Source: a bacterium
Lineage (GTDB): Bacteria > Verrucomicrobiota > Verrucomicrobiia > Limisphaerales > UBA11358
NCBI GenBank assembly: GCA_021780375.1
Contig: JAJXYT010000111.1
Span: 10,809-74,808, forward strand
Direction of reading: 5' to 3'
DNA: 64,000 nucleotides
Shown here: piece by piece, positions 26,722 through 33,678 of the stretch
Position numbering within the stretch: the stretch's first letter is position 1
Layout of the letters: every line of letters starts with the position of its first letter
Position numbers and translations under genes: made by a program
The notes under the pieces: generated by a model
Seen by the model: only the letters and a program-made list of their open reading frames with translations
Told to the model about the DNA's origin: nothing
Database searches by the model: none

Positions 26722-28191
26722 ATGCCAGTTCCGGTCGTCAATATTGCCCAGATGCGCGAGTGGGAAAAGGCCACCTGGGCCACCGGCCAAACCGAGGCCG
26801 AAGTCATCCGCCGCGTCGGCGGAAAAATCGCCGGACTCGCATTGCGCCTGACCCGGCCGGGTGACGGCATTCTGATTCTCGCCGGCAAGGGCCATAACGG
26901 TGACGATGCCCGCGCCGGGCGCGAATTTTTGACCGGCCGGAAAATTATTTTATTGGACGTGGCCGATCCTGAAGCGGCCTTGGCGGAATTTCAGCGCAGG
27001 ACAGCCCCGAAAACTTTCGGGGCTGTCTCTGACTCTTCTGTTTCAGATGGAGACAGGCTGGAAGCCCGTCCTACCTTAATCATTGACGGCTTGTTCGGTA
27101 TCGGCTTGAGCCGCCCGCTCGATGGCGGCTGGAAGAAAATGATCACGACGGTCAATCGATCCCCAATTCCGGTTCTCGCCGTGGACGTGCCGTCCGGCTT
27201 GAACGCCGACACCGGCCAGCCCCAAGGAACAGCCATTGCGGCAGCGGTAACGCTGACGGTGGGCGCGCCCAAAATCGGAATGCTCCAACAAAGTGCCTGG
27301 CCATTTGTCGGCCGGCTGGAAGTGGCCGAAGATATCGGCCTGATTCCCTGTCCGCATCGGGGCGAAATGAATTGGACGCTGCCGGGCGAGTTCGCCGGTT
27401 TTCCACCGCGCCGCGACGTAGCCGGCCACAAAGGTTCATTCGGGCATCTGGCGATTATCGCGGGCAGTTTCGGATTTCATGGCGCGGCGGTTCTGGCCGC
27501 GCGGGCGGCACAACGCGCGCAACCAGGGCTGATCACGCTGTTCACCCAAGAAATCATCTACCGTCCCGTGGCGGTGCAATTGCAGGCCGTGATGGTTAAC
27601 ATTTGGAAACCGGAAACCCGATTACCGGAATCCACCAGCGCCATTCTGATCGGGCCGGGTCTGGCCGCGCCGGAAATAACCGAAGCCATGAAAGCGCCGA
27701 CCCGTCAATTTTGGCGCGAGTCGGAACTGCCGGTAATTGTGGATGCCAGCGCACTTGCCTGGCTCGAGTCAGGCGCCGCGCCAAAGAATACCATTCGCGT
27801 CGTCACGCCGCATCCCGGCGAAGCGGCCCGAATGCTGGGTAAAACCGTGCCGCAAGTGCAGGCGGACCGGCCGCAGGCCCTGCGCGAGATTTCACAACAC
27901 TTTGGCAATTGCTGGGTCGTGTTGAAAGGACATCAAACGCTGGTGGGCCGGAGCACGGGCGAAATCTCTGTAAATTCATCCGGCAATCCGCATCTGGCCC
28001 AGGGCGGCAGCGGGGACGTGCTGTCAGGTTTCATTGCGGGACTGCTCGCGCAACCCGCGCTGCAAGCCGATGCCGGCAAAACCCTCCGCTTCGCCGTTTG
28101 GCGGCACGGCCATGCGGCGGATACCTTGCAGGCGGCACGAACAAATTGGGTGGTGGAAGATCTGGTCGCCGAATTGGGCAAGGCAGGCTGA
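26722..28191 (+). CDS. nnr: bifunctional NAD(P)H-hydrate repair enzyme (epimerase / ADP-dependent dehydratase)
   Basis: YjeF-N blocks GKGHNGDDA and VDVPSGLNADTG. Carbohydrate-kinase blocks HKGSFGHLAIIAGS and GNPHLAQGGSGDVLSG. Confidence 0.9.
   Translation: MPVPVVNIAQMREWEKATWATGQTEAEVIRRVGGKIAGLALRLTRPGDGILILAGKGHNGDDARAGREFLTGRKIILLDVADPEAALAEFQRRTAPKTFGAVSDSSVSDGDRLEARPTLIIDGLFGIGLSRPLDGGWKKMITTVNRSPIPVLAVDVPSGLNADTGQPQGTAIAAAVTLTVGAPKIGMLQQSAWPFVGRLEVAEDIGLIPCPHRGEMNWTLPGEFAGFPPRRDVAGHKGSFGHLAIIAGSFGFHGAAVLAARAAQRAQPGLITLFTQEIIYRPVAVQLQAVMVNIWKPETRLPESTSAILIGPGLAAPEITEAMKAPTRQFWRESELPVIVDASALAWLESGAAPKNTIRVVTPHPGEAARMLGKTVPQVQADRPQALREISQHFGNCWVVLKGHQTLVGRSTGEISVNSSGNPHLAQGGSGDVLSGFIAGLLAQPALQADAGKTLRFAVWRHGHAADTLQAARTNWVVEDLVAELGKAG
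27000..27027. repeat. 13-bp perfect palindrome inside the nnr coding sequence
   Basis: GACAGCCCCGAAA-ac-TTTCGGGGCTGTC. It is followed by CTGTCTC..GAGACAG and GACAGGCT-gga-AGCCCGTC hairpins up to about 27075. Confidence 0.75.
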
Positions 28192-28246: not shown

Positions 28247-28291
28247 TTTCCTTCACCTTCCGCAAATCCAGCCTGCCGGTGCCAGCAGCGG
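28247..28291. repeat. decayed copy of the last ~45 nt of the aas coding sequence
   Basis: TTTCCTTCACCTTCCGCAAATCCAGCCTGCCGGTGCCAGCAGCGG vs 28777-28822 TTTCCTTCACTTTTCGCAAATCCAGCTTGCCGGTGCCCAGCAGTGG (about 41/46). On the minus strand it reads ..AAGTGRLDLRKVKEMA*, compared with the genuine end ..LLGTGKLDLRKVKETA... Confidence 0.75.
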
Positions 28292-28681
28292 TCTTCTATT
28301 TTTGGACTGCGGCGGGAAGCGCAGCGCCACGCCGCTTGCGCACGCACGAGCCATTGCCTGCACTCGAAAATCTTGGGTCCGTCCGAAAGCGGTGTCGTCG
28401 CTTCGCTCTGCCACCGCACTCCAAGACGCTCCGCGTTCACCAGGCCACCGTGCCGTCCCGCCAGCGTCTTGGGCTCCGTAGCCCGCCGCCGCTCTCGCTT
28501 TGCGTTAATTCGCGGGATTCGCGGATCAAAAATCCGTCATCCAATGACATCCCTTCGCGCATCTTTGACCAAGACCGGTGGGCGCGCTCATGCTTCCTCG
28601 CCCCGCGACGCAGGAGCGGGGAGAGGATCGAGGAGAGAGGCGGCTTTATTGATTGAATTGACAGGCTCCTCCTCTCTCCGG

Positions 28682-28710
28682 CCCGCGCCTCCATTTTATG
28701 GAGGCGCGGG
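28682..28710 (-). terminator. 13-bp GC-rich perfect hairpin 28 nt downstream of the aas stop (no U-tract)
   Basis: CCCGCGCCTCCAT-ttt-ATGGAGGCGCGGG. Confidence 0.45.
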
Positions 28711-28738
28711 AGTGGTTGCGGCGCAAGCCGCGCCGTGT

Positions 28739-31700
28739 TTATCCGTGTCCATCTGTGGTTGAAAGTTTCCGGGCTGTTTCCTTCACTTTTCGCAAATCCA
28801 GCTTGCCGGTGCCCAGCAGTGGAAACTGCTCCACGCGGAAAAACTGGTCGGCACGCGGTTTCCAGAGATTCGGCAGGTCACATTGCGCCAGCTTTTCCAG
28901 ACACGGCGCCAATTTTTCGACGGTCAACTTGTGCAGCACCACCAGGCGTTCGCCTTTCTTTTCGTCCGGGACACCGGCGACAACGAAGGTCTGCTCGGTC
29001 GCGCCGGCCAGTTCGTGCAATTTTTCCTCCACCTTGATGTGCGGCACCATTTCGCCGCCGATTTTGCTGAAGCGGCTCAGGCGATCGGTGATTTGCAGGA
29101 AACCGTCTTCGTCAATCGCCGCAATGTCGCCGGTACAATACCATTTTGCTTCGTTGGCGGAGCGCGGATTGTCTTCAATCCGCAGCGGTCGATTTTGCAG
29201 AGGTGCTGCGAGTTGGGACAACTCGCGCTCCGGTTCTCGCAGCACTTCAGCCGTCTTCTCCGGTTTGCCGAGGTACCCGAGCATCACATTCGGGCCGCTC
29301 ACAAGCATCAGACCGGGCTGACCGACCGGCAGGTTTTCCCCGCTCCACGGATTTTCCGGATCAACAATTTTGACGCTCACGCCCGGCAGCGGATGGCCGA
29401 TTTTTCCCCGTTTGGCGCCGATCTGGCGGAAACCCGCCGAGCGGAAATCGTGCGTGTTCACCGCCACGGCCGGCGCGCATTCGGTACAGCCGTAGCCTTC
29501 GAGCGGGCGGAGGCCGAACTGCTCTTCGAACGCCAACGCGAGCCGGTCCGGCAGTTTTTCCGCGGCGGTCACCACGACCCGCAGGCTGCCGAAATCCTCC
29601 GCCGGACAGCCGCGCAGGTAAAGTTGCAGGAACGTCGGCGTGGCGAGCAGGAAGGTGAGCCGGTAATCGCGCACCAGCGGGCCGATGGCTTTCGCGTCGA
29701 GCGGATTCGGATGATAAACCACGCCCACGCCCAGGATGGCCGGCAGGCAAAGCGTGCCGGTGAAACCGAACGAATGGAAGAACGGCAGGATGCCCAGGAA
29801 ACCATCGCGGTAGGCGAGGCCAAACACCTGTTCGAGTTGTTCGACGTTCGAGCCGATGTTGTAGTGGCTCAACATCACGCCTTTCGGGTCGCCGGTGCTG
29901 CCGCTGGAGAAAATCACCGTGGCCAGATCATCGAGCTGCGATTTTCTTTCCGCGCCGAGCCACGATTGCAACCAGCGGTCGGGCACAAACCACGCGATGA
30001 AAAAAGCGGCGAGCTTCTCGCCGATGCCCGGAGCGCCGGGCACCAGCCCGGCGGGTTTGCCAGCATTCCCACTTTGCGTCGAAACGGTGTTCGGCGTTCC
30101 GAGTTGTTCCTGGCGGTCTGTTTCACGCCGGGTCGGAGACCGGCGCTCCACTCCCATTACGTCCTCCAGCAGAACGGTTTCGCAGGGCAGCTTCAGCTTG
30201 AGCCGGTCAAGAAACGCCTTTGCGGTGACGACGGTTTTGAGGTCGCATTGCCGGAGGCACGAGGCGAGTGTTTCCTCCGACACGGTGTAATTCAAATTCA
30301 CCGGCACCTTGCCGAGCAGCAGCGCGGCATAATTGACGAGGGCGCCCGGCACCGACGGCGGCAGCAGTACACCGACCATGGGCTGATTCAACCAGATTTT
30401 TCGCAGCCGCCGCGCAAGAAAAACGGACCGTACCAGCGCTGCGCCGAAGCTGACCCGGGTGTTTTGCACGTCCGCCATGGCGAAGCGGAAGGGATGGTTG
30501 CGCGCCGTGTTGACGAAGGCGATGGGCAACGGACGCATCCGTTTCTTGCGAGCCTGCCAGGCCTCGACGAGCAGTTCCTGCACCGTGGAGCGCACTTGAA
30601 AAGGGGTGGCCGTGGGCGGTAGCGGTTTACCATAGTTAATCGTGATGGGGTAGGGGTAACGCCGCGGCAGTTTCCACAGGAACCGGCCTTTTTCAAAACT
30701 AAAGATGCTGCCCCAGACGCCGTCCATGGCCACCGGAACAATCGGCGCGTCCACACCTTTCATGATGCGTTCGAAGCCGCGCCGGAACGGCAACAGATGG
30801 CCGATGCGCGTGATTTGCCCCTCGGCGAAAATACAAACCACGTCGCCGGCGCGGATGGCGTCACTGGCGGTTTGGAGCGACTTGAGCATTTCGCGCGGGC
30901 GTTGCTCGGACGAAATTGGAATGATGCCAAGAATTCTGGCGAACGGCTTGACGTACGGCAGTTCGTAGAGGCCCTTGAACATCATGAACCGGACCCGCCG
31001 GTCGGTGGACGCCAGCAGCAGCACCGCGTCCACAAATGACACGTGATTGCAGACAAAGAGGGCGCCGCCCTTTTCGGGAATGTGGTCGCGGCCGAGGACG
31101 CGGATGCGATACAGCGAATGCGTCGCGCACCAGAGCACGAACCGCAGCAGCGAATCCGGCATCAGCTTGACGCAATAAATGGTTCCCGCCAGCGACAGCA
31201 CCGCGCCGAACAGGAAAATTTGCGGCGCCTTCAGATGCAACCCAACCGTGAGCAGCGAATAGACTTCCGACGCGAGCAGCATGCCAATCCAGCTCAACAA
31301 CGTGGAGGCGGCGATGACCTTCCCCTTGTTATCGGCGTCGGGCCGGTGCTGGATGATGGCGTTGACGGGCACGTTATAAAATCCGCCGAAAAAACCGAGG
31401 AGGCCAAGGCCCCACGCGAAGGCGGCAACACCCAGTCCGGCGTGGGCGAGCAGCGCGGAAAAAATCGTCAAGCCGGCCATGCCGAGCGGTATCAAACCGT
31501 ATTCGATTTTTCCGCCCGACAGGAATCCGGCCGCCAGGCTGCCCGCGCCGACGCCAACGAGCATTCCGCCCTGCAAATAGCTGCTGTGCCGGTCGTCGAA
31601 ATGAAAAATGTCCTTGCCGTAAAAAAGAATGGTGAATTGCAACAGCATGGCGAGAAACCAGAGGAAGGCATTGCCGATGACGCCGAGAAACAAGACGCGA

Positions 31701-32431
31701 TCGCGGCGGATTGCCTTCAATTGCGACCAGAAATCGCCGAGAAAATTCGCACGGAATTTTTTATGCGGATCGGCGGCGGGCAGGCGCGTGATGCCGAGGC
31801 AGAGTGACAATCCGACCAGGGCCAGCGCGAGGAGGATGAGTCCAGACCAGATTTGCCGTTGGCCGAACGTATCCGAAAGCATGCCGGCAAAAATCGTCCC
31901 GGTGATGGCGGCGGAGAAGGTGCCCAGGCCGAAAATGCCGTTGCCCCACGACAATTTCTTTTCCGGCAACAGCTCCGGCAACATCCCGTATTTCGTCGGA
32001 CCGAAAATCGCGCTGTGCGTGCTCATCAAAAAAATGCCTGTCAGCATCAGGGGAATATTATTGAGCCACAGACCGAGCGCCGCCGTGGACATAATGCCGA
32101 GTTCGGCGCATTTGACGGCGATGGCGACGCTGCGTTTGCTGTAGCGATCTGCAAAAAATCCACCGGCCATCGAAAACAGGACAAACGGCAGTGCGAACAC
32201 GGTGCCGACCAGCGGCACCAGCGAATCGCGTTTTTCCAGCGACAAACCCATGCCGACAATCAAAAACGAGACGAGCCACCGGAGGACGTTGTCGCTGAAG
32301 GCATTTTGAAATTCGACGGCGAACATGAGCCAGAAACTGCGCAGATGGGAAGCCGGAGTCCGAAGGTGCGCAGACTGATTTCCGCCGTCTGTCTGCGGCC
32401 GTCCGGCGGCCGGGGTCTGGTTTGCGGTCAC
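28739..32431 (-). CDS. aas: triple fusion: MFS lysophospholipid transporter (LplT-like), PlsC-type acyltransferase and acyl-ACP synthetase/AMP-binding (Aas-like)
   Basis: The N-terminal ~420 aa are a 12-TM MFS. The acyltransferase carries HX4D (CNHVSFVDAV) and FAEGQITR. The AMP-binding motif is IFSSGSTGDPKGVMLSH, with C-terminal GTGKLDLRKV. Confidence 0.85.
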   Translation of the reverse strand: MTANQTPAAGRPQTDGGNQSAHLRTPASHLRSFWLMFAVEFQNAFSDNVLRWLVSFLIVGMGLSLEKRDSLVPLVGTVFALPFVLFSMAGGFFADRYSKRSVAIAVKCAELGIMSTAALGLWLNNIPLMLTGIFLMSTHSAIFGPTKYGMLPELLPEKKLSWGNGIFGLGTFSAAITGTIFAGMLSDTFGQRQIWSGLILLALALVGLSLCLGITRLPAADPHKKFRANFLGDFWSQLKAIRRDRVLFLGVIGNAFLWFLAMLLQFTILFYGKDIFHFDDRHSSYLQGGMLVGVGAGSLAAGFLSGGKIEYGLIPLGMAGLTIFSALLAHAGLGVAAFAWGLGLLGFFGGFYNVPVNAIIQHRPDADNKGKVIAASTLLSWIGMLLASEVYSLLTVGLHLKAPQIFLFGAVLSLAGTIYCVKLMPDSLLRFVLWCATHSLYRIRVLGRDHIPEKGGALFVCNHVSFVDAVLLLASTDRRVRFMMFKGLYELPYVKPFARILGIIPISSEQRPREMLKSLQTASDAIRAGDVVCIFAEGQITRIGHLLPFRRGFERIMKGVDAPIVPVAMDGVWGSIFSFEKGRFLWKLPRRYPYPITINYGKPLPPTATPFQVRSTVQELLVEAWQARKKRMRPLPIAFVNTARNHPFRFAMADVQNTRVSFGAALVRSVFLARRLRKIWLNQPMVGVLLPPSVPGALVNYAALLLGKVPVNLNYTVSEETLASCLRQCDLKTVVTAKAFLDRLKLKLPCETVLLEDVMGVERRSPTRRETDRQEQLGTPNTVSTQSGNAGKPAGLVPGAPGIGEKLAAFFIAWFVPDRWLQSWLGAERKSQLDDLATVIFSSGSTGDPKGVMLSHYNIGSNVEQLEQVFGLAYRDGFLGILPFFHSFGFTGTLCLPAILGVGVVYHPNPLDAKAIGPLVRDYRLTFLLATPTFLQLYLRGCPAEDFGSLRVVVTAAEKLPDRLALAFEEQFGLRPLEGYGCTECAPAVAVNTHDFRSAGFRQIGAKRGKIGHPLPGVSVKIVDPENPWSGENLPVGQPGLMLVSGPNVMLGYLGKPEKTAEVLREPERELSQLAAPLQNRPLRIEDNPRSANEAKWYCTGDIAAIDEDGFLQITDRLSRFSKIGGEMVPHIKVEEKLHELAGATEQTFVVAGVPDEKKGERLVVLHKLTVEKLAPCLEKLAQCDLPNLWKPRADQFFRVEQFPLLGTGKLDLRKVKETARKLSTTDGHG
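29172..29231. repeat. 60-nt repeat element, copy inside the aas CDS (encodes ERELSQLAAPLQNRPLRIED)
   Basis: TCTTCAATCCGCAGCG..GCTGCGAGTTGGGACAACTCGCGCTCC. It contains the 8-bp palindrome GCGAGTTG/CAACTCGC. The second copy is at 32576-32635. Confidence 0.75.
30030..30149. repeat. 120-nt segment inside aas bounded by a perfect 10-bp inverted repeat
   Basis: GGAGCGCCGG (30030-30039) and CCGGCGCTCC (30140-30149). It encodes a low-complexity stretch ..RRSPTRRETDRQEQLGTPNTVSTQSGNAGKPAGLVPGAP... Confidence 0.5.
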
Positions 32432-32575
32432 GCGACCAGACTATCTCTTTGTGAGCCAGGCTGTGAATTGAAAAACTTTGGCCGGACATTGTTTGTACTG
32501 ATGGAACCGTCGGCCGGATGAAGCCCGGCAAAAATGGAAATTTGGGGTGTCCTGATTTGCCGGGAGCGCGGATCG

Positions 32576-32635
32576 TCTCAATCCGCAGCGTTTGGGGTAG
32601 TCGAACCGGCTGCGAGTTGAGACAACTCGCGCTCC
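32576..32635. repeat. 60-nt repeat element, intergenic copy
   Basis: TCTCAATCCGCAGCG..GCTGCGAGTTGAGACAACTCGCGCTCC, in the same orientation as the 29172-29231 copy. It lies in the aas/CHAD divergent region. Confidence 0.75.
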
Positions 32636-32748
32636 ACGTCGGCAATTCGGATTTCAAAGCGGGACACTACCGGAAATTCCTTGAACTGAAGCCGGCCGGC
32701 GGGCATGGTTAAACCTGAAGAAATTCTCCGCTCAAGACCCGGCGGTTT

Positions 32749-33678
32749 ATGGCATTTCATTTCAAAAAAAAGGAATCTCCGACCAAAGCGGTACGGCGCT
32801 TGAGCCGGGAACGGCTCGAAAAGGCGCTGGACCACTTGCGGAAGTGTGACCGGCTGGAGGCCATTCACCGCGTGCGTAAAGAGATCAAAAAAGTGCGCGC
32901 GACCCTGGGGTTGGTACGTGAGAATACAGGTGCGAACGCCTATCGCAAGCGCGTGAAGACGTTGCGCGCAGCGGCGAAGCGCCTGCAGGACCCCCGGGAC
33001 GCGCGGGTCCGGCCCCAAGCGCTGGAACGATTAATCGGGCATTTCCAGAACCGGCTGCCCGCCCGGCCGTTTGCCGGGATTGAAAAAGTTTTAAGCCAAC
33101 ATTGCCGCAAGGAAATTCGCGAGTTCAACCAGAGCAAATCCGTGACGGCGGTCGGCCGCCTGTTGCAGAAAATATACCGGGGCACCGGCGGTTTGAAAGT
33201 CAAGGCGAACGGCTGGACCGCCATTCAACCGGGATTGCAGGAAAGTTACAGCGACGGGCGGAAAGCATACGAAACAGCTGTTCACGAAACATCGCCGAAG
33301 AATCTTCATCAGTGGCGGAAACACGTGCAGAGCCTCTGGCATCAACTCCGCCTGCTTCATTCGATCCAGCCGGAAAGACTGCAAACTGCGGTCGGTGAAA
33401 TGAAGCTGCTGAGCCAATATCTTGGCGACGATCATGATTTGGTCATGCTCAGGCAATTCGTCGCCGGCCACTGTGCCCGCCGATATGCCCGGGAAGTCAG
33501 GATGCTGGATCTGCTGATTGATTTGCGCCAAAAGGAACTGCGGTCGGCCGCCTTTGCCCTGGGCGCGCGTTTTTATGCGGAGAAACCTTCCTCGTTTTGC
33601 CGGCGACTTGAAAGTTACTGGCATAGCTGGCGAACCGCGGGGAAGAGTCCACTGGTTGAACGGGTATCGCAGCCGTGA
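32749..33678 (+). CDS. CHAD domain-containing protein
   Basis: Helical His-rich pattern: AIHRVRKEIKKVRATL, LHQWRKHVQSLWHQLRLL, LGDDHDLVML. Confidence 0.75.
   Translation: MAFHFKKKESPTKAVRRLSRERLEKALDHLRKCDRLEAIHRVRKEIKKVRATLGLVRENTGANAYRKRVKTLRAAAKRLQDPRDARVRPQALERLIGHFQNRLPARPFAGIEKVLSQHCRKEIREFNQSKSVTAVGRLLQKIYRGTGGLKVKANGWTAIQPGLQESYSDGRKAYETAVHETSPKNLHQWRKHVQSLWHQLRLLHSIQPERLQTAVGEMKLLSQYLGDDHDLVMLRQFVAGHCARRYAREVRMLDLLIDLRQKELRSAAFALGARFYAEKPSSFCRRLESYWHSWRTAGKSPLVERVSQP

Follow-up and report, generated by a model that had tools for sequence, protein, structure and literature searches.

A REPIN-like palindromic repeat in the coding sequence and in the upstream spacer of an aas-like gene from a verrucomicrobial genome

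How does one and the same repeat come to lie both inside a protein-coding frame and in the non-coding DNA beside it? The question is raised by a stretch of 64,000 nucleotides from a bacterial draft genome (NCBI GenBank assembly GCA_021780375.1, contig JAJXYT010000111.1, positions 10,809 to 74,808 of the forward strand), referred to here as the window. It contains two copies of a short palindromic repeat, one within an aas-like gene and one in the spacer between this gene and a divergent CHAD gene. A preliminary description of the locus had reported both copies as a 60-nt element in the same orientation and had read the coding copy as direct evidence for exaptation of repeat DNA into a protein loop. 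Both stretches are present as described, and one repeat does occupy coding and non-coding DNA of this locus. Their history was very probably a different one. The repeat appears to be a mobile, non-coding core of the repetitive extragenic palindrome (REP) or REPIN (inverted REP doublet) type. Its copy in aas would be a tolerated passenger, and its copy in the spacer an independent insertion of a miniature inverted-repeat transposable element (MITE).

The genome to which the window belongs (G000) comprises 4.01 Mb in 210 contigs, with a completeness of 85% and 58% GC. The lineage was placed in the Verrucomicrobia by the source names of its protein homologues. Further genomes, contigs and loci are cited by G, C and L numbers where they need to be told apart.

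Two copies of an inverted doublet

The gene and the two copies of the repeat are located in the window as follows.

28739 to 32431, minus strand: aas-like gene, a single open reading frame of 1230 aa that joins a major facilitator superfamily (MFS; LplT-like) part, a PlsC-type acyltransferase and an AMP-binding acyl-ACP synthetase (Pfam PF07690, PF01553, PF00501)
29159 to 29231, plus strand: copy 1, a REPIN-like core of 73 nt inside aas, which reads the opposite strand; two inverted REP units with an 18-nt loop
32563 to 32635, plus strand: copy 2, a REPIN-like core of 73 nt within a MITE; the second copy of the preliminary description

Homologues of the gene carry the source names acyl-ACP-phospholipid O-acyltransferase / long-chain-fatty-acid-ACP ligase. 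Copy 2 lies 3.4 kb from copy 1, between the aas-like frame and the CHAD gene (32749-33678), and the two are identical in orientation. The shared flanks and the internal 8-bp palindrome reported earlier are confirmed, but the bounds of 60 nt were drawn too narrowly. The unit common to both copies runs from GGAGCGCGGAT to GCGCTCC, measures 73 nt in each and forms a REPIN-like doublet.

The core is an imperfect palindrome with two arms that are inverted counterparts, GGAGCGC-GGATTG-TCyTC-AATCC-GCAGC on the left and GCTGC-GAGTTG-rGA-CAACTC-GCGCTCC on the right. Each REP unit is 27-28 nt long with a 6-bp stem; in copy 1 the two inverted units are GGAGCGCGGATTGTCTTCAATCCGCAGC and GCTGCGAGTTGGGACAACTCGCGCTCC. 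Compensated differences between the arms (GGATTG/CAATCC on the left, GAGTTG/CAACTC on the right) leave a perfect 6-bp hairpin in both, and the small hairpin on the right corresponds to the 8-bp palindrome GCGAGTTG/CAACTCGC. The 27-nt right arm (consensus GCTGCGAGTTGrGACAACTCGCGCTCC) is matched at 27 of 27 positions in copy 1 (29205-29231) and at 26 of 27 in copy 2 (32609-32635); no match with up to three mismatches arose in 100 dinucleotide-preserving shuffles of the window. Folding of the 73-nt unit yields a free energy (dG) of -44 to -47 kcal/mol with a z score of about -5 to -6, and the two strands behave alike. A stop codon occurs in only one of the six frames of the element, so that an insert staying open is unremarkable in itself.

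The spacer between the arms varies among copies of the family. The loop of the aas copy is nearest to core-only copies in G045, G166 and G034 (91-94% identity). We also considered whether the aas copy could be a local duplicate of the spacer copy. This was ruled out, since the two 18-nt loops are unrelated in sequence and the aas loop matches core-only copies elsewhere.

An in-frame insertion in the acyl-ACP synthetase domain

Copy 1 forms the greater part of a segment that interrupts the adenylate-forming domain.

29144 to 29236, minus strand: insert of 93 nt or 31 codons, EPERELSQLAAPLQNRPLRIEDNPRSANEAK, identified by DNA and protein alignments with orthologues, the solved homologue 8weu_A and an AlphaFold2 (AF2) model

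Within the AMP-binding domain, copy 1 is translated as ..REPERELSQLAAPLQNRPLRIEDNPRSANEAKWYCTGD, and the protein of G000 reads ...PEKTAEVLR-EPERELSQLAAPLQNRPLRIEDNPRSANEAK-WYCTGD. Nine relatives from the same genus or order read ...GYLGxPEKTAEVLR-DG-WYxTGD and lack the insert. Thus the earlier view of the coding copy as an insertion between PEKTAEVL and WYxTGD is borne out by the orthologue alignment and by 8weu, and the inserted peptide is absent from orthologues. The 93 nt consist of the 73-nt core with 5 nt and 15 nt of flank and stand in place of 6 nt (the Asp-Gly codons), a net gain of 87 nt or about 29 residues. We surveyed 120 database homologues, of which 110 had a readable motif. The canonical spacing (LRDGWYxTGD) was found in 99 of the 110, including the three closest (89-91% identity), and the solved homologue 8weu_A has no gap at the site (D367-G-W369). 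Both HMM and BLAST matches are split at the insert.

The same core is found at the same codon in G041, an independent assembly of a closer relative with flanks of 94% protein identity, together with a further 21 nt. This excludes a misassembly and shows inheritance. Taken together, the alignments indicate that the aas insert is real, inherited and young. The frame in use encodes a hydrophilic peptide (..ERELSQLAA..LRIEDNPRS..), about 24 residues of which belong to the core itself; its tryptic peptides would be ELSQLAAPLQNRPLR and IEDNPR.

The extra 21 nt of G041 (L082, G041:C208:614-697) read GGCGCGACGCCGGCACCCTCT and resemble the right arm of a palindrome that the sister genome G004 carries at the same codon. 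This resemblance hints at nested or serial insertions.

Structure prediction with AF2 and a 121-sequence alignment gave a mean predicted local distance difference test score (pLDDT) of 79.6 and a predicted template modelling score (pTM) of 0.81; a run with 10 sequences (pLDDT 51) was unusable. In the former, the insert (fragment residues 447-474) has a pLDDT below 50 and lies between well-modelled strands. The insert appears as an excursion from the fold, modelled with low confidence.

A permissive turn and other host genes

The turn that received the core has taken up other sequences as well. Unrelated inserts of 15-57 aa occupy exactly the same turn in 11 of the 110 homologues. A second family, itself multi-copy in G000, G016 and G078, supplies the palindromic insert of 60 nt (GGTGGCTGCGACGCCCTCGTCGCA...GGCGACGACGCGTCGCCACC) that the sister genome G004 carries at the same codon. 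The 57-residue insert of homologue P0121 is a 165-nt GTAG...CTAC REPIN (dG -90 kcal/mol) that is homologous to a REPIN beside a transposase-like gene on contig C35 of G000. At least four unrelated repeat families have been accepted by this one Aas loop.

These findings point to a permissive surface loop, and to tolerance of the insert without acquired function, because the insert has diverged further than its flanks (81% identity between G000 and G041 as against 94%, with a 21-nt indel within the insert region), is modelled as disordered and has unrelated counterparts in 10% of homologues.

The core has also entered other genes. In a DUF58/VWA gene of G046, G077 and G166 it is present in the same orientation and frame (..RELSQLAA..AAVWDKPRS..), the orthologues of G000 and G045 have no core, and in G004 and G011 this point is taken by other palindromic repeats. 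The DUF58/VWA loop is a second hot spot for in-frame repeat insertion. The loop is situated just after ..VISDF.. (L072, G046:C4; L074, G077:C97; L108, G166:C3; L109, G004:C10; L110, G011:C5; L112, G000:C27). A third host is an Lnt-like gene of G166 (L122, G166:C4:375757-375830), in which an in-frame core lies within an 820-aa frame with HAD and Lnt (apolipoprotein N-acyltransferase)-like parts. The orthologue in G000 (C64:11326-11847) is contiguous at this site. Along its length the inserted peptide switches from one frame of the element to another, so an indel in the loop is implied.

Most long open frames over core-only copies elsewhere were not counted as coding. They were spurious (without a Pfam match, or Arg-rich antisense frames), or the element lay 5' of the true start. 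One further candidate, in an 'NAD-GH' frame (L138), was dropped as unreliable.

The aas-like gene itself holds a second segment derived from a repeat.

30124 to 30150, minus strand: in-frame REP singlet GGAGCGCCGGTCTCCGACCCGGCG of another, very abundant family (more than 70 near-identical matches in G000), encoding VERRSPTRRE

This singlet lies within a lineage-specific inter-domain linker insert of ~41 aa (window 30020-30160), a linker that is missing in most orthologues. Members of its family in G000 mostly form inverted pairs about 20 nt apart, and they start with GGAGCGC, as does the core family.

The spacer copy as a MITE

The location of the second copy in the aas/CHAD divergent spacer had been given correctly. 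It is not a bare element, however, but a core nested in a MITE that is bounded by target-site duplications (TSDs).

32544 to 32671, plus strand: copy 2 MITE, 128 nt, with terminal inverted repeats (TIRs) GGGGTGTCCTGATTT...AAAGCGGGACACTACC around the core, defined by the full-length family alignment and by the empty site of G004
32536 to 32543, no strand assigned: left 8-bp TSD GGAAATTT, flanking the MITE; a single GGAAATTC stands in G004
32672 to 32679, no strand assigned: right 8-bp TSD GGAAATTC, flanking the MITE

The aas/CHAD spacer of G004 aligns on both sides of the element, lacks the 128 nt and has one GGAAATTC, and thus represents the empty site. All full copies share the TIRs of the shell, GG(T/C)AGTGTCCTGATTT ... 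AAATC(A/G)GGACACT(A/G)CC (GGyAGTGTCCTGATTT...AAATCrGGACACTrCC), with the end sequence GGTAGTGTCCTGATTT. In G000 and other genomes, at least 12 full copies are each flanked by a 7-8-bp direct repeat of their own. Examples are GGAAATTy at the spacer copy and, elsewhere, TGAAACCG, GTGAGTTG, GAAAATTT, GGCCTGTT, AAAGAATC, GGTTTTTC and TTCTACTT. Such a pattern is what a transposase leaves behind when it inserts DNA and duplicates 8 bp of the target, and it marks the spacer copy as a MITE insertion that appears independent of the aas copy.

The shell is not tied to this core. In G000 it also holds other GGAG...CTCC palindromic cores, on contigs C192, C194, C12, C34, C73 and C4. At least three such cores are represented at C192:15592-15712, C194:1169-1267, C12:35290-35395 and C34:1390-1467, with 8-bp TSDs of their own, for example CGCCCATC and GGGGGTTT. 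From its sequences, the shell family would seem to be a superfamily of modular MITEs whose hairpin cargo can be exchanged. No parent insertion sequence (IS) with the shell ends was identified; TIR-like ends in G000 were found on short elements only, and no transposase search was keyed to the ends.

Distribution of the family and linkage to RAYTs

Counts by blastn and nhmmer confirm a dispersed family, with 8-11 copies of the core in G000 (contigs C119, with two copies, C61, C196, C199, C208, C109 and C54, plus weaker fragments). Genus-wide, matches were obtained in 55 of 101 and in 56 of 163 species genomes. They fall into three classes: the 27-nt unit alone, the exact 73-nt core, and an element of ~130 nt with the core in a TIR shell. 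The near-complete genome G166 has the most copies of any genome seen, about 31 cores with identities of up to 94%. The intragenic share of cores is small, a few percent overall and about 2 of 31 in G166.

In relatives of G000, the 27-nt unit is linked to one clade of REP-associated tyrosine transposases (RAYTs). The 231-aa product of a gene on G096:C233 scores 85.3 bits on the NCBIfam model 'REP-associated tyrosine transposase' (cut-off 80) and also matches Pfam Y1_Tnp. The unit stands on both sides of this gene, on one side as part of a doublet, and a frameshifted RAYT copy in G006 is likewise flanked by it. In a genus-wide search, the unit lay within about 100 nt of all four RAYTs that share at least 78% identity with the G096 protein (G096, G113, G102 and G158), and 25 RAYT paralogues of lower identity (53-68%) were without it. 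A RAYT of G142 with 75% identity, near a contig start, has no unit in the 103 nt upstream or in about 1.3 kb downstream.

The repeat thus shows the following REPIN features: a short, dispersed palindromic unit, an inverted doublet folding as one hairpin and, in relatives only, a position beside a cognate RAYT. Judged, for intergenic core-only copies, from filled sites, about 12 core-only copies and the inserts in aas and DUF58 show no direct repeats on their flanks. The apparent lack of TSDs would fit the mechanism of a Y1 transposase, without proving it.

The only RAYT-like gene found in G000 lies at C35:3817-4419 (L041 1231-2118). It has GTAG...CTAC REPINs of ~155-170 nt on both sides (GTAGCGGCGGGCATCCTGCC...) and is also bracketed by a 48-nt direct target duplication. 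Translated, this REPIN yields VAGILPAVEP..., a peptide that is also found in the Aas insert of P0121. Y1-transposase genes of G000 on C191, C70 and C206 are of a different type of ~316 aa and have no core-family units nearby.

Origin of the two copies

We consider it very probable that the locus records two separate arrivals of one mobile element. Two inverted REP units of 27-28 nt, each with its own hairpin and jointly forming the 73-nt hairpin, would constitute a mobile non-coding element. The core would spread alone and without TSDs, presumably through a RAYT acting on single-stranded hairpins, and also as cargo of the ~130-nt MITE shell with 8-bp TSDs, presumably through a DDE transposase acting in trans. 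A core-only copy would have entered aas before G000 and G041 diverged, landing at the Asp-Gly turn of the adenylate-forming domain, and only a length that keeps the frame could have survived there. At a permissive surface loop, the enzyme would tolerate a 31-residue excursion, a passenger with no demonstrated new function.

Several observations weigh against this history. Of the 93 inserted nt in aas, 20 lie outside the repeat and 6 ancestral nt are gone; the event was not a clean cut-and-paste, or the site was remodelled afterwards. In G000, whose assembly is 85% complete, the search did not turn up the cognate RAYT clade. The best RAYT match there, on C35, has 44% identity and stands beside another, GTAG-type REPIN. 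G166, the genome richest in copies, is also without a close RAYT. Given these two genomes, we can only infer that the copies in question were moved by a RAYT. Moreover, the REP unit starts with GGAGCGC and has no GTAG or CGTC tag at either end; GTAG is present in other REPINs of G000. Finally, the case for neutrality is drawn from a structure prediction and from a single pair of species, in which the peptide diverges faster.

Alternatively, the same selfish element would have reached aas by a route other than a RAYT, through microhomology-driven template switching, gene conversion, or insertion of a full MITE that was later trimmed in frame. We regard such a route as possible, though unlikely. 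The gene flank GCTGCGAG beside the insert is identical to the start of a REP arm, the core comes with 20 extra nt and a 6-nt deletion, and the further 21 nt of G041, with their likeness to the right arm of the G004 element, suggest nested or serial events. The search of G000 gave no cognate RAYT, and the shell-plus-core MITE is demonstrably mobile in the lineage. However, many genomes commonly have core-only copies with neither a shell nor a visible TSD, it is to copies of this kind that the aas copy is most closely related, and aas contains no recognisable remnant of a shell TIR. A nested origin, with the core inserted into an older G004-type element, is suggested by the 21-nt remnant in G041, but homologues at 89-91% identity have no insert of any kind.

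In this verrucomicrobial genus, several REPIN families have repeatedly colonised a few protein loops (the Aas A6-A7 turn in about 10% of homologues, the DUF58 loop and the Aas linker). A broader and rather doubtful idea is that more than a filter by selection is at work. Existing palindromes or hairpin-prone single-stranded sites might serve as landing pads for further REPINs, and the elements might be selected to be 'translatable'. Targeting of such pads by nested insertion would explain why different families lie at an identical codon in sister species. The second part of the idea draws on an element that is stop-free in five frames and on the hydrophilic RELSQLAA...PRS, reused in at least two unrelated genes. 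If true, REPINs would be a systematic generator of protein loop diversity.

Exaptation, the reading proposed initially, is improbable. On this account the insert was recruited as a functional Aas loop, for example one that modulates the hinge between the N- and C-domains, ACP docking or membrane contact, and is kept by purifying selection. It can appeal to the retention of the in-frame insert in two species (G000 and G041), to the use of the RELSQLAA...PRS frame in the unrelated DUF58 gene of three species, and to a left REP arm that is 100% conserved between G000 and G041. Conservation of an arm at the DNA level is, however, equally expected of a young repeat. The peptide as a whole diverges faster than its flanks and contains an indel, AF2 assigns it no confident structure, the closest homologues work without it, and one in ten homologues fills the same loop with unrelated sequence. 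We find nothing that supports exaptation of the insert, and this part of the preliminary description is not upheld.

More improbable still is a role as structured regulatory RNA (terminator, mRNA stabiliser or small RNA) that would make the position in aas functional at the RNA level, for instance through a -44 kcal/mol hairpin that pauses translation between subdomains. The fold is very stable, and REPs elsewhere have been reported as RNA elements, mostly downstream of genes (PMC3733652). Against this, neither strand folds better than the other, copies are met with in all contexts and orientations, and no T-tract follows the hairpin. A search of Rfam returned no gathering-level match in the window; the best hit, a spurious one to a plant miRNA hairpin, reached 22 bits against a threshold of 80.

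That the intergenic copy is a duplicated fragment of aas is refuted by the empty site in G004 and the insert-free orthologues, as well as by its MITE ends and TSDs and by dozens of copies elsewhere without aas flanks, despite the proximity (3.4 kb) and common orientation of the two copies and a duplication of the aas 3' end downstream of the gene.

Comparison with known systems

The case reveals no new mechanism or principle, as repeats within genes are known already from Rickettsia, other bacteria and Verrucomicrobia. In-frame intragenic palindromic repeats were established with the Rickettsia palindromic elements (RPEs; Ogata et al. 2000, Science 290:347, via PMC10969869). RPEs and the present core are alike as selfish palindromes that are found between genes and in frame within unrelated housekeeping genes, adding a peptide at a site compatible with the fold. 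In contrast to the 73-nt core of free-living Verrucomicrobia, RPEs are about 100-150 bp long, presumably belong to unrelated sequence families and reside in reduced intracellular genomes; in some RPE families nearly half of the copies are intragenic, as against a few percent for the core. The likeness is therefore one of behaviour, namely in-frame insertion at fold-compatible positions (aas, DUF58 and Lnt-like genes), and not of sequence membership.

Parallels also come from GTAG/CGTC REPs, described by Di Nocera et al. (2013, PMC3733652) within genes of several species, the verrucomicrobium Opitutus terrae among them. These occur as in-frame singlets and inverted dimers, the dimers encode 20-30 residues, and some genes have two inserts (PMC3733652). 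Different REPs have also been found at about the same site of orthologous genes, for example in recB of Xanthomonas (PMC3733652). Similarly, the aas-like gene has two REP-derived segments, the core adds about 24 residues, and three families occur at the same aas and DUF58 sites. Unlike those REPs, the core family lacks the GTAG/CGTC tag and starts with GGAGCGC, is also nested in a TSD-making MITE shell, and inhabits other host genes.

REPINs are defined as inverted REP doublets that form a hairpin and are linked to a specific RAYT (Bertels & Rainey 2011, PMC3116915). The present family shares with the REPIN-RAYT system the inverted doublet hairpin, a less conserved spacer, singlets, and a unit beside one RAYT clade (PMC3116915). 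Published REPINs are described as extragenic; here, one copy lies within a coding frame, the search of G000 gave no cognate RAYT, and a MITE bears the doublet as well. MITEs that make in-frame fusions (ERIC, BOX and those of Anabaena; PMC10969869) resemble the spacer copy in their TIRs, an 8-bp TSD, a non-coding sequence of about 130 nt and presence or absence between relatives. They differ from it in that the present shell has interchangeable GGAG...CTCC cores and no identified parent IS. The aas/spacer repeat accordingly has the defining features of a REPIN except for the tag and a local RAYT, and its spacer copy has those of a MITE.

Two features are mildly unusual: a REPIN core is nested within a MITE shell that creates TSDs, and independent insertions are crowded into a single enzyme loop. 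The locus offers an unusually well-documented natural case of selfish DNA turned into part of a protein, with filled and empty alleles both known. The element is seen in three states (REP singlet by a transposase, free REPIN and MITE cargo), and a second gene uses the same frame. In practical terms, in-frame inserts of this kind inflate or split homology matches. They also mark permissive loops usable for engineering adenylate-forming enzymes, and their presence or absence can serve as a marker for typing strains of an uncultured soil lineage.

Further repeats in the window

Downstream of aas, the last ~45 nt of the gene are repeated after 530 nt with 92% identity (window 28247-28822). The duplicates enclose a repeat-rich insert that includes 201 nt with 93.5% identity to G000:C83:3815-4015 and several short multi-copy palindromes. 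Similar target duplications of 48-100 nt surround RAYT-plus-REP cassettes at G000:C35 and G096:C233. In the neighbouring nnr/YjeF gene (26722-28191), positions 26990-27085 contain palindromes with low-copy matches in G000 (27 nt exact on C12; 22-28 nt on C140 and C142), which may represent another in-frame repeat insertion.

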